A DNA stretch of 64,000 nt, taken from NCBI GenBank assembly GCA_964016885.1, contig OZ024740.1:131068001-131132000 (forward strand), written 5' to 3'. The stretch is from Eledone cirrhosa (taxonomy: Eukaryota). Positions 12,858-46,937 of this stretch are shown one piece after another (positions within the stretch are counted from its first letter, which is position 1; each line of letters opens with the position of its first letter). The translations under genes were made by a program, and so were the position numbers. The notes beneath the pieces were generated by a model, which did no database searches, was not told where the DNA came from, and saw only the letters and a list, made by a program, of their open reading frames with translations.

Positions 12858-12882
12858 TAATAATAATAATAATAATAATAAT
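12858..12882 (+). repeat. (TAA)n at tail-to-tail Dong/Tx1 junction
   Basis: Direct reading. Confidence 0.97.
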
Positions 12883-13131
12883 GATTTATTTATTAACCAC
12901 AAGGATTTACATAAAGTAGACATTAAGGACAGTGCAGGACAATACAGGACGGTACAAATGGGCATTTCTGCGTGTAAAAAACAAAAACAGAAGATGTTAC
13001 AAAAAATAACAATGAAAAATTCCCCAATAGGGGGAGACTTCAGAGGGACATTTGTGGAGAAAGCCCAGTAAAAGGCCACAATGACCATGACCACCAAGAC
13101 AAGTACCCTCTCCCAGTTTTCCATCTTTTAT

Positions 13132-14283
13132 TTACAGATATATACTCAGAGTAGGCCCATTCGCTCGGGCCATTCTTGCTTCTCTCACCCATCTTTCAAC
13201 AAAATGCTGGGAAGAGAGCACTTCCCTCTCTACTCTGATTTTCCTTTTCAAATGAAATTTGAAAAAGTCAATCAGAGCATCACCGAAGAGGTAAGTGCTC
13301 GTCTTCAGCCCTTTCAAACGTGTCCACCATACTATCTCTTTCGCCATGGCCACCAGACAGATAAAAACTGCCTGCCCTTCCCGGCTAAAGGAGGAGGGCG
13401 GGGCAATCCTCACAATGGACTCAGGTGATAGCCGGATCCGTCCTAAACGCGACAGCAGGTGTTCGACATAAACCCACAAGTCAGCAATTTTCGGACACTG
13501 GACTAGTGCGTGCAGGACGGTTTCGTCGCCCTGCTCGCATCTCGGACTTGCCCGGCTGACGGCACCTTCATGCCTGTAGAGTTTATCCCGAACTGGTAAG
13601 TCTCCTCGGTAGCACTGCCAGGCCAGAGATTTCTGGAAGATGTCCATAGGCCCTGGCCCGAAAGTTCTTCCGAAGAGATTGGCTAGTTGATTTTCGTCGA
13701 CGCCTAGATTTTCCCCAAGTACGTCGTCGCTCTTCCTCTCAACTAATCCTCTATAGAACGCCAAGGTGGAGTTTCTACCGATCACATTGCCCGATTGGGC
13801 GAGGGCTGTGAGCGCCTGAATACATTCCAGTCTCCAGGCGCTCCCTCTCGGTCTTCGCTTGACCCAGGACTGCAGCTCCGTCAAGGAAACGAGCTGGGGA
13901 AATACGTGTCTAGCAAACGGCGACCACACCTGATCACCGTTGAGGAAGAGGTGGAGATGTCGTAGCCTGAGCGCGTGCCTGCGCATCATCAGCCACGGCA
14001 TGCCCAGCCCTCCACGTAGCGGGTGTTGACAACAGATGGTTCGCATGACCATCGGAGCGCGTCCCTTCCACAAAAAGCGAAAGAGCAAACGCTCCAGCGC
14101 AGTCTGGCGAGGCTTAGGACAAGGTACGACGGTCAGGCGGTAGCAGATGACAGACGCAATGTACGCGTTAGCCACCTCCGCTCTACCTTTCAGGGATAGG
14201 TTCCCCTCCGCCCATTTCTGGGTGAGATAAGCCACCCTGCTCGTCACCTCGTCCCAGTTTTTTGTCCGTCTGGAGGTCCGCAC
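13132..14283 (-). pseudogene. Tx1 ORF2 post-RT region and C-terminal zinc finger
   Basis: LSLKGRAEVAN, FLWKG, PLRGGLG and degenerate CCHC motifs. Confidence 0.88.
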
Positions 14284-15457
14284 CGAACCAGACCCCTATC
14301 AATTTAACCGGTCCGTGCGTCCAGCGACCGACGACGCTGTTGGACGGCATGGACCTGCCTCTCCAGGTGCCGAGCTGCAGGCCCACTGACTTTTCCTGGT
14401 TGATCATTGCTCCTGTCACCGCTTCGTATTCTCTTAGTGTAGTGCCGATCGCCTCGATATGTTTGGCGTTCGACACCACTACCGTGACATCGTCCGCATA
14501 TGCTGACACGGATCTCCCGCATCCTAGTTCGCGCGGGATGCCCCTCAACGTCTCCAGTTTGTGCAGTAATGGCTCGAGAGTCAATACGTACAAGAGGGAC
14601 GAGAGGGGACATCATTGGCGGACCGAGTGCATGATGTTGAACGGTTCCGACAGGTGACCGTTCACTCTCACCACAGAGCAGATGTCGCTATGCATGGCAG
14701 CGATCCAGCCTCTGAAGACGGGCCCAAAGCCAGCCGCCCTCAGGACTGCCGCTAGGTAACGATGGTCGACCCTATCGAAAACTTTCAACTGATCCAAATT
14801 GATCAAGGACCCACCCGTGCAGGATCCCTAGCTACCCTATCTACGATGTATCGCATGAGGTGTAGGTAGTCGTGGATGGATCTGTCAGGAATGGCGCAAG
14901 ACTGCGCCTCTCCCACCAGACCACCAACGACAAGCGCCAACCTCTTTGCTAGCACCTTGGCCAAAATCTTGAACTCTGTGTTTAGCAGAGTTATGGGCCG
15001 GAAATTATCTATGTTATTCCCGCTTGTTCGGATCCTTTCTCAGCAGTGCCACCGCTCCTCGGCTCACAGAACTGGGAATTCTCCAGTTCTATTGCCAGTT
15101 GCAGTAGACGTCCGCCAAGAGGCCTCCGAACAAGTCTGGCATCTGGACGTAAAGTTCATAAGGCAGACCATCCAAACCAAGCGATTTACCGCTTGTGCAG
15201 TCAGTCATTGCCTCCCTTACTTCAGCGGCTGTTATCGGCTTTTCGCAACACTTCGCCTCAGTGACCGAGAGCCGCAGCAGTCCGTCGGGGTAGACACTAA
15301 AGTCCATCCCTCGACCCGGCCCACCGCTGCCCCCGAACAGCTGAGCGAAGTGTCGCTGAAAAGCTTCACACATTTGCCCGGGATCGAGTAGCATGCGTCC
15401 GTCGTGGTCCACCAAAGACCGGATCGTGGTTCTGTTGCCACGACGCGCCTCCGCCAA

Positions 15458-16501
15458 TCAGGCCCATTGAACGGCTTTCGTCCCCTCATGTCTGAGAGCA
15501 CGCACCCTTGCTCTGACAACGCAGCCTTCTTGCTTTGCATTGAAGAATTGGTCAAGGACCATTTTCGCCGCAAGCACGTCGGTCGCAATGCCTTTGCTAA
15601 GCGCCTCGTCTAATTTTCTAACTAGTTCTCCATCTGCTCTATTTTTCTCTATTACTAAAGCCTTACTAAACCTAATGGATTCTATTCTAATCGCTCTTTT
15701 CAGAGCATACCACCACTTGTTGTTGACGATGGCGCCCGTCAAGGCCCGCTTAACTAGTTCGCTTATACGGTCTCTGTAGGCCTTGCGCGCTGGTAAGGAC
15801 GCGTTTAGCTTCCAGTAGCCGGGTCCTCGTCTATCAAGCCTATCTAAATCAAGCACACAGATCACGAATTTGTGGTACGTGTAACTGACTATCTTGAATT
15901 GGGGACAGCCTATGCTAGACCTATCTATTTCCCTACAAAATAATCTATCTAGATATGATCTGGATGACCCTATGCGATTTGTCTTAGTCCACATTGGCAC
16001 ATTCGGGAAATCCAATCGGTACCTGTCAAACAGTTCAAAACGGCTGAGCAGGTTGGTGAGGCTCTTGAACCCTCCACCCTTATCCGCTAATCCCACACAG
16101 TCCCAGCGTGCATCTAAGATCCCGTTCCAGTCGCCCACTAACACTAAAAAGCGGGACGTTCCAAGAAAGGTCTCCAGACGCCGTAAGAAATCAGGCCGCC
16201 CTGCTCCTGTCGGGGCATAGACGGCCACTAGCCTGAAAGCTTGCCCGTCTCCGCTGGTCACGTCCAGCACCACCAACTTACCCTCTGAGTGCAGGAAGAT
16301 AGCCCGTATGGCGAGATCCAAACCTCTCCGAAAAAGCACAGCAACTCCTCCCCCGATCCAGGACGGCTGGGATATGTGTACACATCGTAGCCGCCGAAGA
16401 TCGGTGCGAAGGCCCGTGCTTCGGAGATTCTGGTCTCGCTGATGGCCACTACATCTATGTTTAGTAACCTGAGGTCGTTGAGCAGGTGACCCTGCTTCCA
16501 T
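15458..16501 (-). pseudogene. Tx1 ORF2 AP-endonuclease domain fragment
   Basis: GGVAVLF, VAVYAP, LVGDWN, SYLDRLF, PGYWKLNAS motifs. Confidence 0.9.
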
Positions 16502-17069
16502 GACGACCCCAAGCCACGCGCATTTATGCTTCCTATACTGAGTGAGGTTATGTTGAAAAGGAGTGGAAAAGATGGGAAATACCTCTTACCTTACTTCTCG
16601 TAGGGGAAGGACGGTTTTTCCATCCTTTTCACTGCTTGTGGCCTCCTCAGGAAGGATGTCCTTATAAATCCTCCTGGAGAGTGCTTGCCGGAAGTCTCCG
16701 ATGTCTTTGGGTAATTTTTGTATTACTGTCATGTACGTTTTCTGTGTCATGCGAGTGATTTGTATGTGTGAAGGTGGTGTGAATTTTGGGGTTGTTGTGT
16801 AGTCTTTTTCTGTGATGCTGGTGTTGTGTTGGATGTAGTGTAATAATTGCTTGTTGTTCAAATTTAATGCTGTGTAGTGTGTATCGTTTTGGTTGTTTTG
16901 TTTTGTTTGCGTTTGTTGTGGGTTTGTTCTGTTTCACATTTTGGTGACTTTTGTGGTGTAGGTGATGGTGGTGTTGGGGTTAATGATGGTGATGGTGTTG
17001 GTGTTTGGGTTGATGGGGTTGGTGATGCTGGTGTGGATGGTGGCATATCTGTCCTAACTTTTTTGTTTG

Positions 17070-18068
17070 TTAATTTATTTGTTTCCCTCTGTATTTTGTT
17101 TTTGGAGGGGGAAGGAAGAGAATTTTTTCTTTTTTGGTTTCTTTTTTTTTTCCTGATACCGTTTCCCACTCCTCGTTGTCACAATCTGTCTCCAGTTGTG
17201 ATAGGCCGGGGAGTGGAAAATCCTCCACAGGCGTTAGTTTTGGTTGTGTCGTGGTGGATGGTGTAGGCGCTGGTGCTAGTTCTGAAGCTTTGGGCGGTGG
17301 TGGTGTTGGTTTTGCTGGTGGTGGTGGTGTTCGTTTTGCTACTGTTGCTGGGTTTGTTGCTGTTATAGTTGCTTCTGTTGTTGCTGCTACAGTTGTTGCT
17401 GCCATCTCTGCTACTGGTGGTGTTGATGGTTGTGTCACTGGGGTGGGTAGGAGAGGTGGCCTCAACCTTTTAGCCTGAGGGCAGAAAGCCCTTAGGTGGG
17501 TTCCTTCACCACAAACAACACACCTAGGCCTTCTGCCCTCGACAATTACGGTGAGGTGGCTGCCGTCAGTGAGGTCTATTACCTCTGGGACCTCCTCAAT
17601 GTATTTTTGGTCCGCTTGGATCAGGAGCCCCATCCCAGATCCGGACCAGTACTCCTGCTTTTCTTTTGCTGTTGCTATTATCTTTGTGTTGGCTTCGATG
17701 CCGGCGAGGACGGCCGCTATTAGCCAGGGAATTTCGATGGCCGGTGGAACGTGGGTCACCCTGATCTTTACGAGTCTCTGGCCACAATAGCTTGGGACGA
17801 GTGTGAAGTCGTCACTTCTTAATGGGGCCATGGAGTGTTCTCTAGCCTCCTCTGGTGTTTCAAAGAACACGTCCACGGTTCCATACTTCTTCCCACGTCT
17901 GATGTGGGTTTTTCTTGGCCACACATGTCCCAAAGCTTTTTCGATTTGGGACTCGGATGCCCGTCCCACTCGGTGCGATTTTACATTTATTGTTCGATAC
18001 GATACGGTGTATCGGCGCCGATGCTCCATTTTATTAGGTGGGGGGGGGGGGGCTGACCCTGTATCCAT
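17070..18068 (-). pseudogene. Tx1 T1 ORF1 core (RRM-like region, CX2CX4HX4C knuckle, Pro/Thr-rich linker)
   Basis: RRPRCVVCGEGTHLRAFCP; upstream VKIRVTHVPP segment typical of L1/Tx1 ORF1. Confidence 0.82.
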
Positions 18069-18769
18069 CTTTCTTTACCATTTGTTTGGCATTTTCTAAA
18101 TCCTCCTGAGTTACCGTAAATGCTTCGAACTGTTTTGCTACTCTGGCAAAACTCAGGGTGGTTTTTTTTAATGTCATTGTTGTTGTTGCTATCGTTATTT
18201 TTGTTATTATTAATTTTAGTTTCAGTTGTGGTGGTGGTGACGTCAGTGGTGTTCGGTGTGGAAGCAGAAGAGTCCATTTTGGTTGAAATTATTTTTCCTT
18301 TTGTTTCTGTTGTCGCGGTGGGGCTGGGGGTGGGGGTTGTCGCGGTGGTGACGGTGGTGGTGGTGGAGGCTTTAACACCTGCAGTCATTGGTAATGGCGG
18401 GAAATGAATGTCTGCCTGAGACAAATTTAAAATATTGCTACTGCTTATATTTTTTTTAGTGTTGACAAACGTAGTAACATTTCCAATGGTGGGGTCGGTG
18501 TGAGGTGTTAATTTGTGAGGAAGGTTTTCAGCTGCTTGGTGCAGAGGTGAATTAGCCATTTTTTTTCAAAGAAATTTGTTGATAATCATAAATGTTTAAA
18601 TTTTGGGCACAAGGCCCCAATCGTTTTGGGTGTTCTTCTTCGGAAAACAATGTATGTGCGCTTATATATAGTTAACAATAACAAATTTCCATAAATATCA
18701 ATTTTTAACAAACGGAAATAACAAACCTTTGCGGAGCTCACGATGATACGATTTACTACGTAGGTCGCC

Positions 18770-18793
18770 AATAATAATAATAATAATAATAAT
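18770..18793 (+). repeat. (TAA)n spacer between tandem Tx1 elements
   Basis: Direct reading. Confidence 0.97.
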
Positions 18794-21700
18794 GATTTCT
18801 TTATTGACCACATCAAGAAAAACATCACATACGGAACAGGACGGTACGATGTGGGTTTTGCGCGTGTAAATATTTTTATTTTTTATATAAGAAAAGAAAG
18901 AAGACATAAAACATATATATATATAAACAATAAAATGAAAATTGAAACAATGAAAAATTCCCCAATAGGGAGGAAACCTCCGAGGGTTACTCGTGGCGAA
19001 AACCACACAAAAGACCACGGCCACCCTGACTACCAGGGCAAGCGCCCTCTCTCAATGTTTCCATCTCTCAAACTACAGACGTATATTCAGAGTGGTCCTG
19101 TTCACTCGGACCATTCTCGCTACATTCACCCACCTTTCAACAAACTTGCTAGAAAGCAGCACTTGCCTCTCCACCCTGATTTTCCTCTTCAAGTGAAACT
19201 TGAAAAAGTTAATCAGGGATTCGCCGAAGAGGAAAGTGTTTGTCTTTAATCCTTTTAACCTTGTCCACCACACAATCTCTTTCGCCATGTCCACCAGACA
19301 GATGAAAACCGCCTGCCCTTCCTCCTCAAAGGAAGACGGCGAGACCATCTGCACAATGGACTCAGTCGACAACCGGATCAGTCCCACACGTGACAGCAAC
19401 TTTTCGACATAGCTCCACAAGTCAGCAATGCTCGGGCACTGAACGAGTGCGTGCACAACGGTTTCGTCGCTATGCGCGCATCTCGGACAGGATCGGTTGA
19501 CGGCACTTCCGTGCCTGTAGAACTTATCTCGAACCGGCAGCGCTCCCTCGTAGCACTGCCAGGCCAGGGATTTTTGGAAGTTATCCATAGGCCCCGGGTT
19601 GAAAGTTCTCCGGAAGAGAGCAAGCAGATGATCTTCTTCGACGCCCAGGATCTCTCCGGGAACGTTGTCGCTCTTCCCCTCCACTAGTCCTCTATAGAAC
19701 GCCGAGGTGGATGTTCCGCCGATACTGGTGCCCAACTGGGAGAGGGCAGTGAGCGCCTGGAGACATTCCGGTTCCCAAGCTTTATCTCTCTGTCTTTTTC
19801 TGACCCAGGACTTCAGCTCCGTCAAGGAGACGAGCTGTGGGAAAATCTGCCTGGCGAACGGCGACCACACCTGTTCACCGTCAACGAAGCACCAGAGATG
19901 TCGCAGCCTCAGCACATGTTTGCGCATCATCAGCCATGGCATGCCAAGTCCTCCACGCATCGGGTGTTGACAGCAGATGGAACGTCTGACCATGGGAGCG
20001 TGTCCCTTCCACAAAAAGCGGAAGAGGAGGCGCTCCATTTTGATGAGAGTTGGGCGGGCTGGAGCAAGGGACGACGGTGAGGCGGTAGCAGATGACGGAT
20101 GCGATGTACGCATTTGCCACTTCCGCCCGGCCTTTCAGGGACAGCTTCCTCTCAGCCCATTTCTGGGTGAGGGAGGCCAACCTGCTCGTCACCTCGTTCC
20201 AGTTTTTCTCCATCTGGAGGTCGGGTCCGAACAAGACCCCGAGCAATTTACCGTTCCGTCCGTCCAACGCCCCACCATGCTGTCGGACGGCATGGACTTG
20301 CCTCTCCAGGTGCCTAGCTGCAAGCCCACCGAATTTTCCTGGTTTATCTTTGCTCCTGTCACCGTTTCGTATTCCTTCAGAGCGGTGCCGAGCATCTGGA
20401 CGTGTCTGGTGCTAGACACCACCACGGTGACGTCGTCCGCGTAAGCCGACTCGGATTTCCCGCATCCTAGTTCACGTGAGACGCCCCTCATCGCCCCCAG
20501 TTTGTGCAGTAACGGCTCGAGAGCCAATACGTACAAGAGGGACGAGAGGGGACAACCCTGGCGGAATGAGCGCATGATGCTGAACGGCTGCAAAAGCTGA
20601 CCGTTCACCCTCACAACTGAGCAGATGTCGCTGTACATTGCTGCGATCCAACGCCTGAAACCGGGCCCAAAAGCGGCTGCCTCGAGGACCGCCGCCAGGT
20701 ACCGATATTACCCTATCGAATGCTTTGGATTGATCCAAGTGTATCAGGGCTCCAACCTTGCCAGGTTCCTTAACCACCCTCTCTATGATGTATCGCATGA
20801 GGTGGAGGTTGTCGTGTATGGATCTGTCCGGGATGGCGCATTTCTGCGCCTCTCCCACCAGACCCTTGACGACAAGCGCCAACCTCGTTGCTAACACCTT
20901 GGCCAAAATATTGAACTCTGCGTTCAGCAGAGTTATGGGATCTGAAATTATCAATAACATCCCCCTGGTTCGGGGCTTTTCTCAGCAGCGCCACTGCTCC
21001 CCTGCTCACAAAACTGGGAATGCTGCCGTTCTGCTGCCAGTTGCAGTAGACATCTGCCAAGAGGTCACCGAACAAGTCTGGCATAAATGCATAAAGCTCG
21101 TAGGGCAGACGATCTAAACCTGGCGATTTACCTCTTGTGCAGTTAGCCATCGCTTCCCGTATTTCACCGGCTGTTATTGGCTTTTCGCAACACTGTGCTG
21201 CGGTCGTCGAGAGCCGGGGCAGTCTGTCGAGGTATGCACTGAAGTCCATGTCCCGATCCGGGCCGCCGCCGCTCCCGAACAGTTCAGCAAAGTGCTGCTG
21301 AAGAGCTTCACACTTCCGCTCGTGTTCGAGCATCACGCACTCGTTTTGGTCAGACAAAGACCGAATTGTGGCTTTATTGCCACGTCGCGCCTCTGCCACC
21401 CGGGCCCATTGGACGGCCTTTATCCCCTCGTGGTTCAGAGCACGCGCTCTAGCTCTGACAATGCAGCCTTCGGTTTTGCGTTGAAGAATTGGCCGAGTGC
21501 CAATCTCGCCTCAAGCATGTCGGTTGCGATGCCTGTCCTAAACGTCTCTTCTAGCTTTCTGACTAGCTCTCCCTCTACTCTATTTTCTATCACTACATTT
21601 GCTAAACCTAATCGACTCTACTTTAATTGCCCTTTTCAGGGCGAACCACCACCTGTTGTTGACCACCGCTCCCGTCAACGCCCGTTTAACTAATACACTA

Positions 21701-24700
21701 ATCCGGTCTCTGTAGGCCTTGCGCGCCGGCAAAGAGGCGTTCAGCTTCCAGTAATCAGGCCCTTGTTTATGAAGTCTGTCTATGTCGATCTCACAGATCA
21801 CAAATTTGTGGTCTGTGTAGTCGACTATTTTAAATTGTGGACAACTTATACTAGCCTTATCTAGTTCCCTGCAGAATACTCTATCTAGATACGATCTGGA
21901 AGACCCGATGCGGTTTGTCAATGTCCATATTGGCACATTCGGGTGATCCAGTCGATACCTGTCTGACAGTTCAAAACATCTGAGCAGATTGGTGAGGCTC
22001 TTGCACCCTCCTCCCCTATCCACTAGCCCCACACGATCCCAGCGTGCATCCAAGATACCGTTCAAGTCGCCCACTAACACTAAAGAGCGGGACGTTCCAA
22101 GAAATATCTCTAGACGTCTGAAGAAATCTGGCGGTCCTGCCCCTGTTGGGGCGTAGACAGCTACTAGCCTGAAAGCATTGCCTTCGCTGCCGGTCACGTC
22201 CAGCACCACCGACTTACCTTCTGGGTCCAGGAACATGGCCCGTATCGCGAGATCCAAGCCTCTCCGAAAAAGGACGGCAACCCCTCCCCCCAATCCTGGA
22301 CGACTGGTAGATGCGTATACATCGTAGCCGCCGAAGATCGGTGCGAATGCCCGTGCCTCGGAGATTCTGGTTTCACTGATGGCCACCACATCTATGTTTA
22401 GTTTCTGAGGTAATTCGGTGACCCTGCTTCCAAGATGACCCCAGGCCACTTGCATTTATACTGCCTATTCTGAGTACAGCCATGTTGGATGAGAAACGGG
22501 GCAAATGAGAAAGGGTCACTTACCTTGTTCGTGTGGTGAAGGGACAGTAGAACCGTCCATTTCGCTGGTCATGGGTGTTTCCAAGAGGATGTCAGTGTAT
22601 ATCCTCTTGGTAACCGTCCCTCTGAAGTCTCCAACTGCGTTGGGGAATTTTTGTTTTAAAGGTTTGTGTTGTTCTATTGAGATTTCTATGACGCTTATGT
22701 TTGTCGGGAGAGTTCTTGGTGTTGGTGGGGTGTAGTAATTTTTTCCGTGATGTCTGTGTGCTTCTTTATATATGTTATGAGTTCTTTTTTGTATGTTTAT
22801 GGCTGTGTACTTTTTGAGGGGAGGGTTGATTTTGTTGCCGTTTTCTTCTTGTTGCTGTTTGGTGTGTGTGTCTTGTTGTGTTTGCGTTGTTGGTGTTTGT
22901 GGTGGTGTTGCTGCAAGTTTCCTTGCTGCCTTTACCCCTCTTTGTATGCCTTCGATTTTGGAGGGTGAATCTAAGGGTTTTTTCATTTTTCTTTTTTGTG
23001 GCAGACTGTTTGCCACGTCACTCCCGCCTCAAACTCCATGTCGGATTCTGTGGCGTCTGGGAAGCGTATGCTCCACGGCTGTTGGTGGTGGTAGTGGAGC
23101 CCTCTTCGGCAATGTTGTTGCTGGTGTAGCTATTTCAAATGTAGCTATTGGTGTTGCCGCTACTGATGATGCTGCTTTAGTTATCCGTGGCCTTGGTACG
23201 GGTGCTACGTACGTTGCCGTCCTACTCACCGTGGAAGGGGCTTCTTCGTGTGTTGCCTTCCTGCTCTTGGTAGCAGCGGACCAGGTTTTGGAAGGCCCTC
23301 TTCGGTGTCTTCTGCGGGCAAAAGGCCCTGAGGTGACCTTTCGACCCACAGTGATAACATTTTGGCCGCCTTCCTTCTACACTTATAGGGAGTTGGAGTC
23401 CTTCCTCAAAGTCTATGATATCGGGGATAGCCTCGATACATTCCTGGTCAGTTTGTATAAGCATTTGCATGCCTATACCTGACCAGTTCTCTCTCCCTAT
23501 TTTTCTACTTGCATCATGGTCGCCCTGTTCTCAATTCCAGCAAGGACAGACGCCGCCAGCCAAGGTATGGGCACGTCGGGTGGGACCTGGGTCACTTTGA
23601 CCCTTACAATTTTCTGCCCGCAGTAGGAGGGCACCAAGACTAACTCCTCACTATTTAGGGTTTCCAAAGTGTGAGACTTTGCTTCCTGGGGGTGGCGAAA
23701 AGTACGTATACTGTGGCGTACTTTCTGCCTCGTGTGATGTGGGTTTTGCGTGCCCAGACGCACCCCAAGGCCTTTTGGATTTGAGCCTCCGTGGCTCTCT
23801 CCACTCGATGTGAGATTTTGCTTACGGTGCGGTAAGTCACCGTTCGTAGCTGCTGGTCCTTGACAAAATCGGGTGGAGGTTTCAAGGAAACTCTATTTGC
23901 GCTTCTTGTCACCATGGCCCTTGCGCCTACCATCTCCTCCTCTGTGACTAACACTGTCTCGATATATCGGGCGACACCTGCAAAATAAGTGGTCCCTTTT
24001 TCACCAGCAACACTATTGCTGCCGCTACTGGTCTTACTGGTGGTGCTGAGGTCGCTATTACAGGTACAGTGTCATTGTTGTTCTTTTCGCTGGTACAGTT
24101 GTTGGTGTTGTTTTCGTTGATACTGTTGCTGCCGTTACTGTTATTGTGGCTGTTGTTATTATTGTTGTTTTTGTTGATACTGTTCCTACTATTATTGTTG
24201 TTGTGGCTGTTGTTATTGTCATTGTTATTGTCATTCTCGACCTTACTGCTTTTATTTTTCTTATTGTCGTTCTCGACCTTACCGCTGTTATATTTGTTAT
24301 TGTCGTTCTCGACTTTACCGCTGTTATTTTTGGTGTTGTTGTTGGTGATGTTGTTGGTGTTATTGTTGGTGTTGTTTGTGTTAAAAATATTTGTTAATTT
24401 TAAATCTGCAACACTCTTTTTTTCCTTTGTAATATTTTTATTTATATTTACCTCCGCTGGAACGCTGTCTTTTTGACATGCTGATAAAGTCTCCCTCTCT
24501 CTGTGTTGTCTGACAGCGCTCTCGCTCTTTTTTGTGTTATCCATGTTGAAATTTTTCAAAAAATGTTTTTATAACAAATACGAATACGACACTCCGTAAT
24601 GAGGTGCCGTATTATGTACTAGTCAACCCCTGTATTAGGTGGGTCACTTCTTCTAAACTTTTATCAAATTTAAAACTTAAATAAAAGGTTTAGAACAGTT

Positions 24701-24762
24701 GAAAAAGGTAAAACGTTGAAAAAGACTGGAGGCGATAAGAAGCGTGGCTTAACCAACCAATC
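18794..24762 (-). mobile_element. Tx1-like element type T2, full-length, divergent from T1, frameshifted
   Basis: Asn-rich ORF1 N-terminus (23948-24559), CYHCGSKGHLRAFC knuckle, APE 21580-22455, RT QGCPLS/YADD 20189-20638, C-terminus 19073-20113. Confidence 0.92.
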
Positions 24763-24779
24763 ATAATAATAATAATAAT
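24763..24779 (+). repeat. (TAA)n spacer
   Basis: Direct reading. Confidence 0.95.
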
Positions 24780-30040: not shown

Positions 30041-30058
30041 AATAATAATAATAATAAT
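30041..30058 (+). repeat. (TAA)n spacer
   Basis: Direct reading. Confidence 0.95.
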
Positions 30059-31330: not shown

Positions 31331-31348
31331 AATAATATTAATAATAAT

Positions 31349-35115: not shown

Positions 35116-36404
35116 TTACTACACCCCACCAACATCAATAATTGAAATAAATCCAACACCATCGACAAAACAATAATAAAAACACTAAGAAAACGAAGTG
35201 GAAACATAATGGACGAATGCCAAAGAAACCTACAAAAAATAATTATTGTACACGGAACATAATTTTCTTCATTAAAATAACGGACCACATGTGTGAATAA
35301 AGAAACTGAATATCAGCCGCACCACTACTCATAATTGCAAATCAAAAACAATATATGTAAGTAACAAACTCTATTGATTATGTTACACACACATGAATTA
35401 TAAACACAACGAAAAATGTACACAAAACAAACATACATATATAGAGACGTTCGCTCTTTGAACTTAAATAACAAATTATTTGAAGAAGAGAAACAATCGT
35501 AGACCGGATGACACACATGCCTATTTAGAGGAGTAGGTTTTGTTTAATTTGGTATTCCCTAACACGAAAATTCGACAAATTATTTTACCACTTATCTCTA
35601 CAAATAATCTGACACTAGATGTGAGAACTGCATACATATTTTTATATGTTTACCCATTACAATCGCTGCTTACATATTATTACTTGAGAAAAGAAGCAGT
35701 CATAGACTGGAAAACACAGTTTATTTCGGGGGATAAGTTCTGTTTAATCAAAAATCCGTCTAATTACTATACAATCATATCTGTGGCCGAAGATTTGAAG
35801 GGTGCATATATATTTTTTAATATTTCCCCAATACAATTCTCTTTTTTTACGTTTCGGTCAATTGTAGCTAAATTTCAGATTTTAAATGGAAAATGGACAG
35901 TTGAAAGATCACTTCTCTCTCCCACTACCATATTCACAACCAGTACTTGACACATTCACAACAGTAAATCCCCAATCTATGTTTAGACTACTGTCACTGA
36001 CTGATACCTACCTTCTTTATCAGTGTCTAATGTGTGGGTATGTACATGTATATATGGTGGCTGCCAACTCGTTTTCGAGTACGGCCACTACCTTATATCC
36101 ATGTAGGAGAACCCCTACCGATGCGTTGAACGAGTGTGACTTTTTAGTCCAGCCAGCGACTTGAAAACTCTGGTACAAACACTACACTTGTGACAATTAT
36201 TGACACATAGTGCTTTGCCTTTGGTACCATGTGACGACAAGTGCAGAGAGATCTCCAGATATAAAGCAATGCCTGTGCCGTGAAGCTTTTATAGTGAGCA
36301 AAGGTACTGCACAAAGCCAGTCCCACTCTCTTAACCAAGATGATATTTACCAAAAAGAAGAACAAGTCAACATCATTGGATACCATCAGGGTTGCAGGTG
36401 TTAT

Positions 36405-36662: not shown

Positions 36663-37045
36663 ATGTATATATATGTGTGTATATACATACGTGTTTATAA
36701 GTATGCACGTGTGAATGTATATTTACGTATGTGTATAGAGACCACACTAATGACAAAACAAAGAGGAAGAACAAAGGATACTAACATAATTACACCTCAA
36801 ACTCAAAATAGACAGAAAATGACACCGGTGAAGCAACCTCTATAAGCTACAATGCCACCCTATCAACCACCACTCCCAGCACCCCAACCCCAGCATTCAT
36901 CTCCCTGACACCACCACCAGCACCGCTCACACCGCAAGAACAGTTGAGAAAATTCTCGTACACCTCTTACAGCTGCAACAATAACAATATCAACGCAATC
37001 AACAACAGCAATGACCATAAATATACTGTTATAATAGTAATAATT

Positions 37046-37120
37046 GTTTCCACTTTAGGAACAAGGCCAGCAACCTCCCAGTGCATTACTGGTACTTTAT
37101 TTTATCGACCCCGTAAGGTT
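37046..37120 (-). mobile_element. Truncated SINE (3' part of the family at 62030 and 63685)
   Basis: Shares CAAGGCCAGCAA..CATTACTGGTACTTTATTTTATCGACCCCGTAAGG with the copy at 62030; the ACTGGTACTTTATTTTATCGACCCCGTAAGG block is also in the copy at 63685. Confidence 0.8.
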
Positions 37121-37134
37121 ATAATTGTAATAAT

Positions 37135-40100
37135 GATCTCAGTACCAGCCAGCAAATGCACTACCCAAAGAGCCGGCCAACTTTCCATGTACGTCCAATA
37201 CCATGCGTAACGCAAGCATGTACTGGGAGATGAACAAATAAAATTCAATACACAATAGCAAATCGCTTTTCCTATGGTTAATCAGGAAGCGCGTCCCTCG
37301 GGAAGGTGCGAACCTGAGAACGAAAAGTCTTCCTCTGACACAAACTCTTCTCCTACTATGGACGTGGATGGTCACTTGATCTGGAATTGCCCCAATCCGA
37401 ACCCTCCAGATCCACCACCCAAACCATCTCAAAAAGTAAAACCTAAAAGGATGAAATGGACCCGACAAGAATATAAAGAAGTAATATATGCATATTACTA
37501 TGCATTAGGTAAGCCATCACAAGACAGACACACTTTAAACTCCTACAACATCTGGAAAACTCGGAATCAAGCTAGCAGTCGTGATATAGATGGAAATAAG
37601 TTGGCACACGTAAGGGGGTATATCTTCAGAAATAATAGACTCACAGACACTGAACTAACTTCGATGAAGCAGGTTGAGGAGAATAACATACATATAAATG
37701 CTGAAAGAACTGAAGAATCTCCTGGAGATAGTAACCAGCCACAAGTCTTTACTGAAAGACCTCTACCTGACCAAAACACAAATAGGTTTGTAGAAATGAG
37801 AAGCCCTATTGAACCCGCTGAAAATAGCCAGCAGAGGGACTTAGAAACAGTAATTGAAAGCCAAACATCTGCTGAAGAACACAGGGAGACTATGAAGGAA
37901 TTAAAGCAAAAAAAATACTGAATGAGCTTGCAATAGTAAGACATTCTAGTATAAATGTTAGAGAATCACTTTAAACACTCCCAAATACAATCCACAATAG
38001 AAAACAAATTACGATTGGTAATTCTGAGACAAAAGAAATCATAGAAGAACTAGAACCTGATCTTACTGAGATAAATGAAATCATATATGCATCTGCTAGA
38101 GTAATTGAAACAAGTTGTTTACCACCAACAAAACAAAAAAAGTCGAACCTTCCAGGTAAACCAATTTGGAGGAGTAGAATCGAAAAGGAGTTTGACGTAA
38201 AGAGAGGAGAAATATTTTTATTTAGTGAGTTAACCGTTGGAAATGATATAAGATCCAAGAAGGTAAGAAAGCTAAAGAGAAAATATGGACTGTCTTCTAG
38301 AGAAGCAATAGTTTCAACAAAAGAATCTCTGAAACAAAAAGTCCAAGTAAAAGCCCAACGAATTCGTAGATTCGAGATGCGAAACAAGTTCTACAGGAAA
38401 AATAAGTTGTTCTCATCCAATGCCAAGTCATTTTATAGACAAGTAGGGAAGAAAAAATAATTATTGAAGTCCATAGAAGAAGTCGAAAACTTCTGGAATA
38501 AGATCTGGAGCGATGAGAAGACATAATACTAATGCCTGGAAAAATCCTACGCAAATTTAGAAGAACATGCGTGGGAAGACATCTTTATAGCGGACTTAAG
38601 GACAGCACTCAATAAATCTCATAAATGGAAATCACCTGATAGAGACAGGGTGCCAAACTTCTGGCTCTAGTGCACTCACAATATATTGGTCAAGCTGTTT
38701 AATGGAATTATGAAAGATCATAAAAATACACCTGATTGGATAGCAAGTGGCATTACCTACCTTCTAACAAAGAACAACGAAACGAAAGATAAAAAAACTA
38801 TCGGCCAAAAACATGCTTGTCAACCACTTATAAACTATTAACCTCTATTCTCATGGAAAAAGCATGTGTTTTTGGAGGAGAACAATCTTTTCCCCATTAA
38901 ACAAATAGGGTGCCGACGAGGTTCATATGGTTTCAACGATCAACTTATGATTAATCGTATGATCCCTGATAGTTGTCATAATAAACACAGAAATCTCAGT
39001 TCTGCATAGATCGATTATAAAAACGCCTTTGACAGCATACCACACTCATGGATTCTGAAATCACTGGACATCTTCAAAATCTCACCTGTGATCTCAAACA
39101 TCCTGAAGCACAATATGTCATTATGGAACACAAATCTCCAATTGTCTCATTCCACTGGGTACTGTACTCTGGGAATATAAACATCAACTGTGATATATTC
39201 AAAGGTGTCTCACTTTCCCCCTTTCTGTTCTGCATAGCTTTAATGCCCATTACATCCGAGCTTAATAGAACAGGGTACGGTTATAGAATTGACAACAAAA
39301 AAATAAGCCACATATTTTATATGGATGATTTGAAGCTATATTGCAAACATAATGACGAACTGGAACGCCTCTTGCGGACAGTAAAAACGTTTAGCGATGA
39401 CATCAGGAAGGAGTTTGGACTTGACAAGTGTGCAAAAGCTATTTTCAAGTAGGGGAACCTTGTCAACTCAGACTCAGTTGAATTGGATGCTGAGACAATC
39501 ATAAAGGAACTTGAGCAAGAACAAACCTATAAATACTTAGGGATTAATTAGGACTCTGGCTTAAGGCATGCAAGTATGAAAGAGAGGATACGGAAATAGT
39601 GTTACAGGAGAGTACGTGCAGTTCTGAGATCAGAACTAAACCCTCGTAACAAGGTGCTAGCCTCGGTGTAATGAACTGGAATATGAGTGACATGAAAAGA
39701 ATTGACACCAAAGTCGGTCAGCTACTGACCTGTAATAGGATGCACCACCCAAAAGCAGATGTGGATCGTCTGTACCTTCCAAGAATTCAGAGAGGCCGTG
39801 GCCTGATCCAATTTGAACTTGCTCACAAGATCACCATCTTTGGACTGGACAAATACCTTGAAACAACTAACGACTGTATGCTGAAATTTGTTGAGAAGAA
39901 TGAGAGAAGTAAGAAGCTTCATTCTATCTTGAAGGAGAGCAAAAAATATGCTACTGATCTCATGCTTGATACACCCAGGCTTGACAGACTAAAGACACTC
40001 ATGTAACTGATGCTGCTAGGCACATACAATGACTGGCAAAAGCAAAAGGGCTAGGACAATGAGAATCAAATTGGGAGCAGAAACATCTGCATGGCAAATA

Positions 40101-40890
40101 TGTTGCCCGTAGCAAACAAGCTGATGTTGACTAGAAGGACACCCATCAGTGGCCAGATAGTTCAGGGCTAAAGGTAGAGAGTGAAGGCTTCATCTTAGCT
40201 GCCGAAGACCAAAGCTTATTAACTCATAATTACCAGGCCAATGTGATGAGATACGGAATAAACCCAAAGTGCCGTTTCTGCAATGATGGGGTTGAAACTG
40301 TGGATCACTTAGTCTCTGGATGTAAAGTTTTACCACTAGAAGAATACAAATATAGACATGACACAGTTGGCCAATATCTACACTGGGTAATATGTCGACA
40401 TTAGAAAATCAAAGCTGAAGACAAGTGGTACAATCATCACCCTGAGGACTATGACTGAAGAAGGAAAAGTAACAATTCTCTGGGACTTTCCTGTACATAC
40501 TGACAGGACCATAAACGATCAACATCACAAGGTATGTTTATTGAAAGATATGAGCATCCCATGTGATCATCATATCGCGGCAAAGAGTTTGACAAGCTAC
40601 GTAAACATAACGGACTGCTTATTGACATTAAGAAAATGTAGCACCTCAAGGCGGTCACAATAACAGTGATTGTGGGAGGACTGAGTATGATCAAGAAAGG
40701 AACAGAACAATATTTACGAATGATTCCTGATTTACCCTCTCTGCACGAGTTGCAAAAAATTGTTCTATTATTTTAATAATAATCAATATGCTGTATTACC
40801 TGGCTGCCCAATGCACACTGTGCATTTATTTGTCATAGGTGTCGGGAAGACACACAGCATATATCTCAGAAACAATAATGAAAGAAAATA
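37135..40890 (+). mobile_element. R4/Dong-like element family C, near full-length, heavily degenerate
   Basis: N-terminal KRMKWTRQEYKEVIYAYY; FYMDDLKLY, EFGLDKCAK, HPKADVDRLYLPRIQRGRGL; CRFC..ETVDHLVSGC; ILWDFPVHTD. Confidence 0.88.
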
Positions 40891-40891
40891 A

Positions 40892-40927
<36 letters not shown>
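40891..40927 (+). repeat. (TAA)n at tail-to-tail Dong/Tx1 junction
   Basis: Direct reading. Confidence 0.97.
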
Positions 40928-40928
<1 letters not shown>

Positions 40929-41750
40929 TTTTCTTTATTAACCACAAGGGTTCACATAAAGTAGACATTAAGGACAGTACAGGACAATACAGGACGGGAC
41001 AAATGGGGATTTCTGCGTGTAAAAAAAACAGAGGTTGAAATAAAATAACAAAGAAAAATTCCCCAATAGGGGGGAGACTTCCAAGGGACATTTGTGGAGA
41101 AAGCCCATTAAAAGACCACAGTGACCCTGACCACCAGGGCAAGTGCCCTCTCCCAGTTCTCCACCTTTAATTTACAGACACATACTCAGGGAAGGCCCAT
41201 TCATTCGGGCCATACTTGCTTCTCTCACCCATCTTTCAACAAAATGCTGGGAAGAGAGCACTTCCCTCTCTACCCTGATTTTCCTTTTCAAATGAAATTT
41301 GAAAAAGTTAATCAGGGCATCACCGGAGCGGTAAGTGCTCGTCTTCAGCCCTTTCAAACGTGTCCACCATACTATCTCTTTCGCCATGGCCACCAGACAG
41401 ATAAAAACTGCCTGCCCTTCCAGGCTAAAGGAAGGGGGCGGGGCAATCCTCACGATGGACTCAGCTGATAGCTGGATCCGTCCTACACGTGACAGCAGGT
41501 GTTCGACATAAACCCACAAGTCAGCAATGCTCGGACACTGGACGAGTGCGTGCAGGACGGTTTCGTCGCCCTGCGCGCATCTCGGACATGCCCGACTGAC
41601 GGCACCTCCATGCCTGTAGAGTTTATCCCGAACTGGCAAAGCTCCTCGGTAGCACTGCCAGGCCAGGGATTTCTGGAAGTTGTCCATAGGCCCCGGCCCG
41701 AAAGTCCTTCCGAAGAGATTGGCTAGTTGATTTTCGTCGACGCCTAGAGT

Positions 41751-43601
41751 TTATCCAAGTACGTCGTCGCTCTTCCCCTCCACTAATCCCCTATAGAACG
41801 CCAAGGTGGAGTTTCCACCGATCACATTGCCCGATTGGCCGAGGGCTGTGAGCGCCTGAAGACATTCCAGTCTCCAAGCGCTCCCTCTCGGTCTTCGCTT
41901 GACCCAGGACTGCAGCTCCGTCAAGGAGACGAGCTGGGGAAAAACGTGTCTTGCAAACGGCGACCACACCTGATCACCGTCGAGGAAGAGGTGGAGATGT
42001 CGTAGCCTGAGCGCGTGTCTGCGCATCATCAGCCACGGCATGCCCAGCCCTCCACGTAGCGGGTGTTGACAGCAGATGGACCGCCTGACCATCGGAGCGC
42101 GTCCCTTCCACAAGAAGCGAAAGAGCAAACGCTCCAGCGCAGTCAGGCGCGGCTTAGGACAAGGTACGACGGTCAGGCGGTAGTAGATGACGGATGCGAT
42201 GTACGCATTCGCCACCTCCGCTCGACCTTTCAGGAATAGCTTCCTCTCGGCCCATTCCTGGGTGAGAGAAGCCACCCTGCTCGTCACCTCGTCCCAGTTT
42301 TTGTCCGTCAGGAGGTCTGGACCGTACCAGACCCCTAGCAATTTAACCGGTGCGTCCGTCCAGGGCCCGACGACGCTGTTGGACGGCATGGACCTGCCTC
42401 TCCAGGTGCCGAGCTGCAGGCCCAATGACTTTTCCTGGTTGATCATTGCTCCTGTCACCGCTTCGTATTCTCTTAGTGTAGTGCCGATCGCCTCGATGTG
42501 TTTGGCGTTCGACACCACTACGGTGACATCGTCGGCATATGCTGACACGGATCTTCGGCATCCTAGTTCGCGCGGGACCCCCCTCAACGTCTCCAGTTTG
42601 TGCAGTAATGGCTCGAGAGTCAATACGTACAATAGGGACGAGAGGGGACATCCTTGGCGGACCGAGCGCATGATGTTGAACGGTTCCGAAAGGTGACCGT
42701 TCACTCTCACTACAGAGCAGATGTCGCTGTGCATGGCAGCGATCCAGCCTCTGAAGACGGGCCCAAAGCCAGCCGCCCTCAGGACTGCCGTTAGGTAACG
42801 ATGGTCGACCCTATCGAAGGCTTTCGACTGATCTAAATTGATCAAAGACCCACCCGTGCCAGGTTCCCTAGCTACCCTCTCTACGATGTATCGCATGAGG
42901 TGGAGGTTGTCGTGGATGGATCTGTCGGGAATGGCGCATGTCTGTGCCTCTCCCACCAGACCACCAACGACAAGCGCCAACCTCTTTGCTAGCACCTTGG
43001 CCAAAATCTTGAACTCTGTGTTTAGCAGAGTTATGGGCCTAAAATTATCTATGTTATCCCCCTTGTTCGGATCCTTTCTCAGCAGCGCCACCGCTCCTCG
43101 GCTCACAGAGCTGGGAATTCTCCCGTTCTGTTGCCAGTTGCAGTAGACGTCCGCCAAGAGGCCTCCGAACAAGTTTGGCATTTGTACGTAAAGTTCATAG
43201 GGCAGACCATCCAAACCAGGCGATTTACCCCTTGTGCAACTAGTCATTGCATCCCGTACTTCAGCGGTTGTTATCGGCTTTTCGCAACACTCCGCCTCAG
43301 TGGCCGAAAGCCGCGGCAGTCCGTCGAGGTAGACACTAAAGTCCATCCCTCGATCCGGCCCGCCACTGCCCCCAAACAGTTGAGCGAAGTGTCGCTGAAA
43401 AGCTTCACACATTTGCCCGGGATCGAGTAGCATGCCATCGTCGTGGTCCACCAAAAACCGGATCGTGGCTTTGTTGCCACGACGCGCCTCCGCCACTCGG
43501 GCCCATTGAACAGCTTTCGTCCCCTCGTGTCTGAGAGCACGCACCCTAGCTCTGACAACGCAGCCTTCGTGCTTTGCATTGAAGAATTGGTCAAGGGCCA
43601 A
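41751..43601 (-). pseudogene. Tx1 ORF2 reverse transcriptase (616 aa open segment)
   Basis: KSPGLDG, NFRPITLLN, LDQSKAFDRV, RQGCPLS, YADD. Confidence 0.93.
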
Positions 43602-44380
43602 TTTCGCCGCAAGTACGTCGGTCGCGATGCCTTTGCTAAGCGCCTCATCTAATTTTCTAACTAATTCTCCCTCTGCTCTATTTTTTCTCTATTGCTAAAG
43701 TCTTACTAAACCTAATGGACTCTATTCTAATTTCTCTTTTCAGAGCAAACCACCACTTGTTGTTGACGATGGCCCCCGTCGACGCCCGCTTAACTAGTTC
43801 GCTAATCCGGTCTCTGTAGGCCTTGCGCGCTGGTAAGGACGCGTTTAACTTCCAGTAGCCGGGTCCTCGTCTATGAAGCCTATCTAAGTCAAGCACACAG
43901 ATCACGAATTTGTGGTCCTTGCAGCTGACTATCTTGAATTGTGGACAGCCTATGCTAGACCTATCTATTTCCCTACAAAATAATCTATCTAGATATGATC
44001 TGGATGACCCTATGCGATTTGTCCAAGTCCACATTGGTACATTCGGGAAATCCATTCGGTACCTGTCAGACAGTTCAAAACGCCTGAGCAGGTTGGTGAG
44101 ACTCTTGCACCCTCCTTCCCTATCCACTAATCCCACACAATCCCAGCGTGCATCTTAGATCCCGTTCCAGTCGTCCACTAACACTAAAGAGCGGGACGTT
44201 CCAAGAAAGGTCTCCAGACGCCGGAAGAAATCAGGCCGCCCTGCTCCTGTCGGGGCATAGACGGCCACTAGCCTGAAAGCTTGCCCGTCTCCGCTGGTCA
44301 CGTCCAGCACAACCAGCTTACCCTCCGGGTCCAGGAAGATGGCCCGTATGGCGAGATCCAAACCTCTCCGAAAAAGCACC

Positions 44381-46687
44381 TCAACTCCTCCACCCGATCC
44401 AGGACGGCTGGGAGATGCGTACACATCGTAGCCGCCGAAGATCGGTGCGAAGGCCCGTGCTTCGGAGATTCTGGTCTCGCTGATGGCCACAACATCTATG
44501 TTTAGTGACCTGAGGTCGTTGAGCAGGTGACCCTGCTTCCATGACGACCCCAAACCACGCACATTTATGCTGCCTATTCTGAGTGAGGTCATGTTTAAAA
44601 GAGAGTGGAAAAGATGGGAAAGACCACTTACCGTACTTTTGGTAGAGAGGGATGGTTTTTACATCCCTTTTCACTTGATCGTCTGGTGAAGGGACCGTTG
44701 AATCGTCCCTTCGGCTGGTCGTCGGCTCTTCTAAGAGAATGTCTGAATATACTCTTCGATTGATGGTTCCTCCTAGGTCCCTGAAATCACCAACTGCGTT
44801 GGGGAATTTCGTTTTAATGTTTGTGTATTGTTTCTGTGCTATTTTTAGCAGTCTTAAGTTAGTTGGCGTTTTGATTGGGGCTGGTATTATGTAGTCCTGT
44901 TGTGAAATGTCTGTGTGTTCAATTATGTAAGTCATTAGTTTCTTGTTGTGTGTATTTATTGCCGTGCATTTGTTTTTCTGGGGGTGAGGTGGGGTTCTGC
45001 TATGTTCTTGTCGTTGTTGCTGGGTGTGTGTGTTTTGTTGTTGTGTTTGCGATGTTGGTGCTTGTGGTGGTGGTGTTGAAGGTGTTGTTGGCGGTGGGGT
45101 TGTCGCCAGTGGTGATGGTGGTGCTAGTGTGGGTGGTGATGGTGTTGGTGGTGTTGCTGCTGTGGGTCTCTTTGCAGTAGACTTTACCCTTTTCTCATTT
45201 CTTTCCTCCCTTTTCAAAGGCGACGATGCGCTGCTTCTGCGTTTGTGCCTTCTTACGACCTTTTGCCATCCCTCTCCCACCTTACACTCCATGTCTGATT
45301 CTGTGAGGTCGGGGAGGGGTACCAGCTCCACACTTTCACTTGTTGTTGTTGGTGATGTTTGCACTGGAGTCTCTGTTGCAGCTGCATTAGGTATTGCTGT
45401 TGTTGTTGTTAATATTTCCACTGCTGCTGCTGTTTTTGATTTCCGTGGTGTGGGTATGGGTGCCACGGACCTATCGTTCCTGGTTGCCGCTTGTCCTGTT
45501 GCTGGTAGCCGTGGAGCCGGTTTCGGAAGGAGGGGTGTTTTCACCTTTCTCAGGGTCTTCTCGTTGCAGAAGGCCCTGAGGTGAGTCTTCGATCCACAGC
45601 GAAAGCATTTCGGGCGTTTGCCCTCAACACTTATGGGCAGTTGAGTGCCGTTATCGAAGTCTATCACATCCGGGATAGCTTCGATGCACTCCTGGTTGGT
45701 TTGGATTAGCATCTCAATGGAGGTGCCGACCCAATCTTCTCTTACTTTTTTCTGTACTTGCAGTACAGTTGTTTTGTCCTCGATTCCGACGAGGACAGAC
45801 GCGGCCAGCCATGAATGTGCCATTCCGGGTGGGGGGGGGGGGGGGTCAGTTTGACCCTCACAATTTTTTGCCCGCAGTAGGAGGGCACCAACACCATTTC
45901 CTCGCTCCTTAGGGTCACTACTGATTGGGCCTTTGCCTCGGGTGATGTGCGTTTTCCGTTGCCACACAGACTCCAAGGCTTTTTGTATCTGAACCTCTGT
46001 GGCTTTTTCCATCCTACGGGATTTTGTACTTACTTTACGGTACGTGACCGTACAGTGCTGTTGGGTTTCGAAAAATGTTTCCGCTGCCTTGCAGATTTCT
46101 CGGTGTCCATTCTTTGTCACCATCTTCTTCGCTTCCTCTAATTCCTCATTTGTTATGAGGATTGATTCCAAGATTTTCGCAATGCCTGCAAATGAGATTG
46201 GTTTTTCTTTGCTGCTATTGTTGTTGTTGTCGTCAGAGCTGCTGGTACTTTTGTTGTTGCTGCAGGTACTACGACTACTGCCTCCGCCGCTGTTGCTGTG
46301 GTTGTTGTTGGTGTTGCTGCTGCTAATGCTGTTGTTGTTTATGCTGCTGGTGATGCTATTGCGGCTGCTACTGTTGTTTTCATTGTCACTGTTGCTGTTG
46401 TTATTACGGCTGCTACTGCTATTATTCCTGACGTCAGACGAATGAACTGGGTTTTCGTATTTCCCGCACACCTGTTTCGTCGCTGTCGTCGTCGTCGTGG
46501 AGAAACCTTGCACGCTTTGCACGAGACTTTTCTTTTCTTTCGTCACTTGCAAAAGAGAAGGGAGGGAGAGAGACACATTTAAAGAAGGGAGGGAGAGAGA
46601 CAATCTTCTCTCTGCTGTAGTGATGATTGAGGAAGAAGAAGACGGAATGAGTGGAAGTGACGTATGACATTTCTTTTTCGTAGCCAT
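44381..46687 (-). pseudogene. Tx1 T3 ORF1 (gag-like nucleic-acid-binding protein); internal out-of-frame stretch and probable read-through past the native stop
   Basis: Ser/Asn-rich N-terminus, CFRCGSKTHLRAFC knuckle, Pro/Thr/Gln linker, conserved C-terminal block. Confidence 0.82.
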
Positions 46688-46901
46688 GTTGTTTTTTGTT
46701 TAAAATGAATATTGGGTACAAAACCCCAATAACTGGTTATTTAATCCCGAAGGGCCAAATAACGGACAGAAAGACCCCTCTCACGAGGAGGAGGGTGTCT
46801 TTATCAACAATTTGGTTCAAGTTTTAAACAACTTACAATTGTTTTAACGGTTAAAAATTACTATACCTTACAGAGCCGAGCCCCCGTCAACCATGGCATT
46901 C

Positions 46902-46937
<36 letters not shown>
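46902..46937 (+). repeat. (TAA)n spacer
   Basis: Direct reading. Confidence 0.97.

Follow-up and report, generated by a model that had tools for sequence, protein, structure and literature searches.

The stretch analysed here, called the window throughout, comprises 64,000 nt (C1:131068001-131132000) of the 3.0-Gb genome of Eledone cirrhosa, and self-comparison together with Pfam searches resolves it into a stack of long interspersed nuclear elements (LINEs). Its minus-strand copies encode an apurinic/apyrimidinic-type endonuclease (APE), a reverse transcriptase (RT) and a zf-RVT zinc finger, and form a large, recently active Tx1-like family with two open reading frames (ORFs), the copies being arranged head to tail, all on the minus strand, with TAA tracts between them. 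That this family prefers ATT repeats, as these tracts read on the strand of the element, as its insertion target is as a pattern hardly in doubt. The Tx1-like copies of the window are the following.

2658 to 6970, minus strand: rearranged Tx1 copy with an A1-type 5′ end and an internal deletion near 3385
7068 to 8889, minus strand: 5′-truncated Tx1 copy with a partial tandem duplication (7068-7952, 7953-8884)
12883 to 18769, minus strand: full-length Tx1, subfamily A1, ORFs broken
18794 to 24758, minus strand: full-length Tx1, subfamily A3, broken, about 80% identical to A1/A2 over ORF2
24780 to 30040, minus strand: Tx1 of subfamily A2, both ends present, internal deletions
31350 to 35117, minus strand: subfamily A4 copy of Tx1, older, with 72-83% identity to the other copies
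40928 to 46901, minus strand: full-length Tx1, subfamily A2, with ORF2 at 44592-41175 (stops and one frameshift) and the ORF1 frame within 46699-44384
55743 to 57184, minus strand: 5′-truncated Tx1, 1.44 kb

The original prediction had counted four full-length copies among five; those starting at 12883, 18794 and 40928 are full-length, whereas the one at 24780 has both ends but only 5.26 kb against about 5.9 kb for the undeleted length. The copies at 2658-6970, 7068-8889 and 31350-35117 come in addition to those five. ORF2 is interrupted by stops or frameshifts in every window copy and intact in none, and it is unbroken in several of 186 loci fetched genome-wide, some of which have both ORFs intact; P0003 is an intact ORF2 of 1,139 aa counted from Met. 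Because such natural intact copies exist, rebuilding the endonuclease from 44592-43678, as had been proposed, is unnecessary.

The domain order, N-terminal APE, RT and C-terminal zinc finger, is documented by Exo_endo_phos, RVT_1 and zf-RVT matches above the Pfam cutoff in P0003 and P0006; weak matches to MBD, Surfac_D-trimer, GEMIN8, Glyco_hyd_65N_2 and Dit_C fell below the cutoff and were ignored. The best PDB sequence match of ORF2 is human L1 ORF2p (E 6e-52), and ORF2 has the APE scaffold, the catalytic residues and a 9-residue hairpin loop at the position of that in L1. With its APE N-terminal, the element lacks the restriction-like endonuclease C-terminal to the RT that is the hallmark of Dong/R4. 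ORF1 of the Tx1 clade carries a gag-like CCHC knuckle and an RRM. A C-x2-C-x4-H-x4-C pattern is visible in ORF1 of P0004, P0005 and locus L220, and Pfam returned neither RRM nor knuckle at E 0.1. Two homolog searches, each scoring about 8,000 candidates, returned 9 and 12 proteins. The nearest named full-length relative, from Stylophora, is 32% identical and bears the database label 'Transposon TX1 uncharacterized 149 kDa protein', which is a label only. A relative from Argonauta hians (57% identity) nests inside the lineage in a quick tree, and relatives on metagenome contigs, at 37 loci, are all distant (21-47% identity over the best segment). Membership of the Tx1 clade is thus likely, the placement being by domains and best matches and not by a tree with named families.

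The repeat tracts that separate or flank the copies in the window are these.

6971 to 7067: TAC tract, (TAC)n then (TAA)n, between two Tx1 copies
8890 to 8964: (TAA)11 then (GAA)14 at a 5′-truncation point, the TAA part being 8890-8922
12858 to 12882: TAA tract common to a Dong-like 3′ end and a Tx1 3′ end
18770 to 18793: TAA tract common to two head-to-tail Tx1 copies
24759 to 24779: TAA tract common to two head-to-tail Tx1 copies
30041 to 30058: TAA tract from a Tx1 5′ end to a 5′-truncated Dong-like copy
31331 to 31349: TAA tract from a Dong-like 3′ end to a Tx1 3′ end
40887 to 40927: TAA tract from a Dong-like 3′ end to a Tx1 3′ end
46902 to 46937: (AAT)12 tract at a Tx1 5′ end
55713 to 55742: TAA tract from a Dong-like 3′ end to a Tx1 3′ end
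57185 to 57203: TAA tract at a 5′-truncation point, followed by the truncated Dong-like copy 57213-57899

TAA tracts were thus confirmed at both ends of the window copies, including the truncation points at 8890 and 57185, as predicted. The tract at 8890 is the 5′ junction of the truncated and partly tandem-duplicated copy, whose inner joint at 7953 has no tract. The junctions are not independent, because neighbouring copies have the tracts at 18770 and 24759 in common. Since the tracts at 12858, 31331, 40887 and 55713 double as the 3′ ends of plus-strand Dong/R4-like elements, the window alone cannot separate a target from a tail.

Genome-wide, a 28-base 3′ motif of the Tx1 element gave 6,571 exact matches, and (ATT)3 follows 5,279 of 6,364 exact terminal matches (83%). 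Both ends were mapped in the loci from two best-hit searches and in most of the first 100 pattern matches on C1, which gave 214 ends, or 181 after de-duplication, with 65 copies full-length, 64 called truncated and 52 running beyond the edge of the fetched DNA. An ATT tract lies upstream of 64 of the 65 full-length copies, the single exception being an interrupted tract. This ATT might be a co-transcribed 5′ end, and the truncated copies are therefore the real test. Among these, 31 of 64 junctions (48%) have (ATT)3 within 20 nt upstream, compared with a background of 771 in 399,200 positions (0.19%) in 20 fixed 10-kb regions, and even at the rate of the highest region (0.79%) the binomial p is 9e-48. 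Chance is excluded as the source of ATT at the truncated junctions. As controls at the same 64 junctions, the opposite strand (AAT) scored once and GT/CA never; TTC, one of the repeats targeted in the Kibi/Koshi group, was found upstream of 2 versus 31 for ATT. Hand curation left about 55 independent truncated junctions, 28 of them with a tract.

Copies at imperfect sites add a different kind of evidence. Target-site duplications were read at five of them (L061, 12 bp; L075, 21 bp; L112, 15 bp; L127, 28 bp; L131, 17 bp), all beginning (C)ATTA and with no ATT in the 3′ flank past the duplication; the remaining rows of the duplication scan are tandem neighbours or pure tracts and uninformative. 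These duplications without extra units and the 5′-truncation junctions together show that most of the tract is target, with a minimal insertion site that appears to be ATTAT(T). The flank criterion for a Tx1 target preference is more than 20% (PMC4494074, from the portion dealing with targets), and here 83% of 3′ ends and 48% of truncated 5′ ends carry the repeat, with target-site duplications. Young copies, 98-100% alike, show the same junction pattern.

Related families make the same point with another repeat. A looser Tx1 terminal motif gave 10,754 matches, 8,069 of which continue with ATTA, and 20 exceptions picked by hand among the matches listed comprised 17 copies of sister families and 3 ATT-family copies with altered flanks. 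The sister families are about 70-74% identical to the ATT family over ORF2. Two sister motifs gave 1,210 and 1,176 matches, and 30 loci of each were examined (14 loci of the first set repeat those of the exception sample). The flank begins TATCTAT in 21/30 and 18/30 (39/60 in total), and TATC lies upstream of 12/19 and 12/20 truncated copies (24/39), several with clean duplications; truncation calls in the second family are less sure because its reference is a rearranged fragment. A (TC)n target for this second family, suggested by L208, was rejected with 18/30 starting TATCTAT. Although the terminal motif is the same, the repeat found on either side varies with the family. The claim that ATT is a target rather than just an encoded tail is thus borne out by truncation junctions, by ATTA duplications without extra units and by TATC-flanked sisters. 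The sister loci are L207-L223 and L227-L286 (C1), with intact ORF2 in L220 and L222, and at L218-L220 several sister copies lie in a satellite of about 59 bp at a TATC-AATAT junction.

The tracts of the window are also occupied by LINEs of the opposite orientation, as listed below.

8965 to 12857, plus strand: Dong/R4-like element of family C whose 3′ end lies on a TAA tract; degraded RT and restriction-like nuclease
30057 to 31335, plus strand: 5′-truncated Dong/R4-like, family B
37996 to 40886, plus strand: degraded Dong/R4-like, family D, 5′ end unmapped
47930 to 51269, plus strand: Dong/R4-like family B, with RT at 48068-50137, CCHC, RHD and PD..D nuclease at 50527-51204 and tail at 51270-51314
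52175 to 55712, plus strand: second Dong/R4-like family B copy
57213 to 57899, plus strand: truncated Dong-like copy

An RT followed by CCHC, RHD and PD..D motifs was found in P0002, with remnants in families C and D, and such motifs C-terminal to the RT we take to be marks of Dong/R4, so that families B, C and D are called Dong/R4-like. Family B was also considered as an RTE element with a TAA tail, which was rejected on account of the C-terminal restriction-like motifs. TAA stands upstream of 22/40 truncated Dong-like copies and the ATT strand of 0/40, in loci chosen for Tx1 and hence enriched. A neighbouring element could be recognised past the tract in 112 of 180 Tx1 3′ flanks: Tx1 neighbours lie on the same strand in 53 cases and never on the opposite one, Dong-like 3′ ends lie on the opposite strand in 44 and never on the same one, and short interspersed nuclear elements (SINEs) lie on the same strand in 14 and on the opposite one in 1. 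Under target-primed reverse transcription, an established mechanism, this polarity would have each of the two enzymes nicking a different strand of one duplex. In L165, L169 and L173, truncated Tx1 and Dong-like copies stand head to head with short microhomology and no tract, and these joints are possibly later deletions.

The SINE is a 184-bp element with 147,222 exact tail matches genome-wide, of which 129,507 (88%) are followed by ATTA and only 23,048 (16%) by (ATT)3. Of 13 SINE ends in the 20 fixed regions, 9 start ATTA and 7 have a duplication of at least 8 bases. Its head shows Box A/B-like motifs by eye, and ARAGORN made no tRNA call in the window. Two SINE copies and the predicted hairpin of the Tx1 3′ end lie in the window.

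37041 to 37118, minus strand: 5′-truncated SINE with the common 3′ hairpin and an ATTA-starting duplication
62026 to 62103, minus strand: 3′ part of a full-length SINE; 16-bp duplication beginning ATTA
40940 to 40952, minus strand: predicted Tx1 3′ hairpin with a 4-bp stem and CUUGU loop, followed by AATAAA at 40934-40939

The CUUGU loop is common to the SINE tail and all Tx1 subfamilies, on stems of different sequence (AACC/GGUU, GCC/GGC, GGCC/GGCC, UGGC/GCCA). A stem of at least 3 pairs, lying outside the search pattern, is kept in 233/250 LINE ends and 61/69 SINE ends. In 14 aligned ends, 3 of the 4 pairs change on both sides, with a score matched by none of 500 shuffles and lower values in slid controls; the 14 sequences are related and the structure was derived from them, so that the shuffle score is not a probability. 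AATAAA stands only 6 nt before the Tx1 end, and the DNA copies have no poly(A) tail. These likenesses of the 3′ ends are consistent with a SINE mobilised in trans by the Tx1 ORF2. That long tracts are scarce at the SINE and common at the LINE suggests a nuclease that recognises a short motif; the LINE would then owe its enrichment in long tracts to something else, for instance to pairing of RNA with DNA in cis or to repeated insertion into arrays of its own.

A high-copy Tx1-like lineage that inserts in fixed orientation into ATT repeats, with the endonuclease leading the targeting at ATTAT(T), is in our judgement quite probable. The APE would nick the A-rich strand at ATTAT(T) and prime reverse transcription there. 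The (AAT)n strand would be cut first, close to a TpA step; microhomology with the last bases of the element leaves the position uncertain by 1-3 nt. ORF2 would bind the 3′ CUUGU hairpin, and read-through AUU units after AATAAA may anneal and thereby favour long tracts in cis. With ATT left on either side, every insertion would restore the target, and head-to-tail arrays would result. The opposite polarity of the Dong/R4-like elements would come from a nick in the complementary strand of that duplex, and the SINE would borrow the Tx1 ORF2 and land at short ATTAT sites.

Several observations weigh against this account. The evidence for the mechanism comes from sequence patterns, and the sampling is weighted to young copies and to the first 57 Mb of contig C1. 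If only the 3′-side tracts of the window are considered, insertion of Dong into the tails of Tx1 could account for them. At 33 of the 64 truncated junctions (ATT)3 is absent upstream; on curation by hand, 6 of these proved rearranged or duplicate, another 7 show an ATTA duplication or a short ATT site, truncated Dong-like ends adjoin 7 more, and 13 are unexplained, including 2 with TTC and 1 with AAT, the 5′ junction of L116 with a same-strand Dong-like end. The 31 positive junctions include 2 internally deleted full-length copies and 1 tandem duplicate. Where the original prediction had called the lineage specific for ATT/TAA, a strong preference holds, and some insertions used ATTAT alone. 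Most SINE copies lack a long tract; should they depend on this enzyme, a long tract is not something that the nuclease by itself requires. In favour of the account, comparison of empty and filled alleles, which had been proposed as a check, went part of the way. At L175, with a 166-bp insertion, a single contig of a related organism bridges both flanks with 73 bases versus 265 here, an empty site that is some 190 bp shorter and whose ATT content is not proven; two further runs did not reach across these flanks. For L061, compared with four runs, no bridging joint was found among the matches listed, and a contig of the same species holds the filled junction.

Alternatively, the target could be set mainly by RNA-DNA pairing: a weakly specific nuclease would nick AT-rich sites widely, and priming would occur only where the nicked DNA anneals to a transcript ending in AUU repeats. 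With no poly(A) tail and AATAAA so near the end, read-through AUU units are plausible, long tracts are frequent at LINE copies and seldom found at the SINE, and tail and target match in every family, TATC included. No units were added at imperfect-site copies, however, and the endonuclease loop differs between ATT (NRIGSS) and TATC (NRSGTS) families, though as one change on the tree. Pairing as what sets the target is therefore considered unlikely, and the two mechanisms may act together.

A tract that is the encoded tail of a non-specific LINE, with TAA-specific Dong elements and tandem duplication building the arrays, would account for the four window tracts that double as Dong-like 3′ ends, for the TAA upstream of truncated Dong-like copies and for the partial tandem duplications that do occur (L012, L145, L164, window 7953). 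It leaves unexplained the ATT upstream of truncated Tx1 copies (31/64 against 0.19%), the tail-less ATTA-starting duplications and the TATC on both sides of sister copies; the 5′-junction counts have largely refuted it already, and we regard it as very improbable. Next to no credence is given to random insertion with survival only in ATT-rich clusters through selection or low recombination. Passive accumulation near microsatellites has been proposed for Drosophila Waldo-A/B, as mentioned in the pertinent part of PMC3812793, and the Tx1 copies do cluster in arrays with a spacing of about 6 kb, but the junctions coincide with the repeat and keep to one of its strand orientations (31 versus 1) and the pattern is the same in the young copies.

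Returning to the endonuclease, the residues aligned to the L1 betaB6-betaB5 loop lie in the window as follows.

44002 to 44019, minus strand: endonuclease hairpin-loop residues NRIGSS

The ATT subfamilies have NRIGSS at this place, or NRIRSS and NRIVSS in two decayed copies, and the TATC families NRSGTS or NHSGQS. In the quick tree, with SH-aLRT support only, the TATC families form one clade (100) that is sister to ATT subfamily A5 (99), with the remaining ATT subfamilies outside both, which suggests that ATT may be the ancestral target; the A5 copy appears continuous. Being a single change on this tree, the loop difference is a lead and not a correlation. It can be put forward only tentatively that this is a still-active, undescribed octopod Tx1 radiation, which would have switched from ATT to TATC through changes in a few residues of the endonuclease, with a single RNA hairpin retained, and whose ATT branch would have converged on the target of Dong from the opposite strand and would carry an octopus-specific SINE burst. 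If so, the ATT branch would help to seed and lengthen the tracts that it targets.

Microsatellite-targeting Tx1 families, as far as the part of PMC4494074 on them goes, use TC, TTC, TTCC or TTTC, with (TC)n for the teleost Kibi, (TTC)n for Koshi and (TTCC)n/(TTTC)n for crocodilian Tx1. Like the Eledone family, these are Tx1-type APE LINEs preferring a microsatellite; compared by target and not by tree, Kibi and Koshi differ in having pyrimidine-rich targets instead of ATT, or TATC in the sisters. TAA is listed as the target of Dong, DongAg and DongBg (PMC3812793), and Dong is placed in the R4 clade with its restriction-like nuclease (PMC4640811). Dong shares its microsatellite with the Tx1-like element, and Dong-like families B, C and D occupy the same window tracts; the Tx1-like element differs from it in having an APE, two ORFs and the opposite orientation. 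No ATT- or GATA-targeting Tx1 was found in the full-text literature searched, which did not extend to Repbase, Dfam or the lists of known Tx1 targets in PMC4494074 (supplements, figure 3). Repeat-seeking LINEs are already known, and it is the ATT target that was not found described for Tx1 in that literature.

The Tx1L endonuclease of Xenopus is sequence-specific in vitro, and when loops were grafted among L1, Tx1L and R1Bm, specificity did not move with them as a module (PMC1950540, in the excerpt on these enzymes). The Tx1-like ORF2 agrees with Tx1L and human L1 in APE scaffold, catalytic residues and 9-residue loop, and differs in loop sequence, in target and in DNA copies without a poly(A) tail. 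Two intact endonucleases of an ATT and a TATC family, 61% identical and from the same genome, make the determinants of target change in APE-type LINEs directly testable. The locus further presents two unrelated nucleases that would use one duplex from opposite strands.

Stringent LINEs bind 3′ stem-loops, as in zebrafish ZfL2 (PMC4176376), and LINE/SINE pairs are reported for a monocot L1 lineage with maize and sorghum SINEs (PMC3747384) and for SINEU/Tx1-Mar (PMC4494074), each in the relevant portion of these papers. Here, as in those pairs, there are a 3′ hairpin, a kept loop, a covarying stem and a SINE with the target motif of the LINE. Unlike in those pairs, the putative carrier is a microsatellite-targeting Tx1, and the SINE has at least 147,222 copies; the common hairpin names a likely carrier for it. 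An annotation of O. vulgaris notes recently active L1-Tx1 and Dong-R4 families (PMC13282606) and SINEs are given as the main repeat class in the octopus group (PMC8967140), in the parts of both that concern repeats; a Tx1 partner for an octopus SINE was not found in the full-text literature searched. The opposite Dong/R4-like elements, the TATC sister families and the SINE with its CUUGU hairpin were absent from the original prediction.

Some minor features of the Tx1 copies and their surroundings were also observed. Subfamilies A1 and A2 are 97% identical in ORF2 and only 41% in their ORF1 cores, and comparison of window 16585-18769 with 44600-46901, together with L039 and L162, places the difference in the 5′ untranslated region and ORF1. 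A common ORF2 with distinct 5′ parts suggests that 5′ modules may have been exchanged between the two. At the ORF1 stop, AAGGTAAGT resembles a splice donor (window ~16560-16575; L039 3615-3630). Partial tandem duplications of Tx1 3′ ends have no tract between the units at window 7953, L012 and L145, and one at L164 has three units with a tract. A 218-bp near-perfect inverted repeat lies at window 1091-1308, within a Dong-like family C copy. Runs of (GAA)n/(TTC)n adjoin TAA tracts, often at Dong-like 5′ ends (window 8921-8964, L053, L057, L120, L122, L124, L141), and tracts that have drifted from TAA to TAC or TAG units are still found at Tx1 ends (window 6971-7023, L010, L112).

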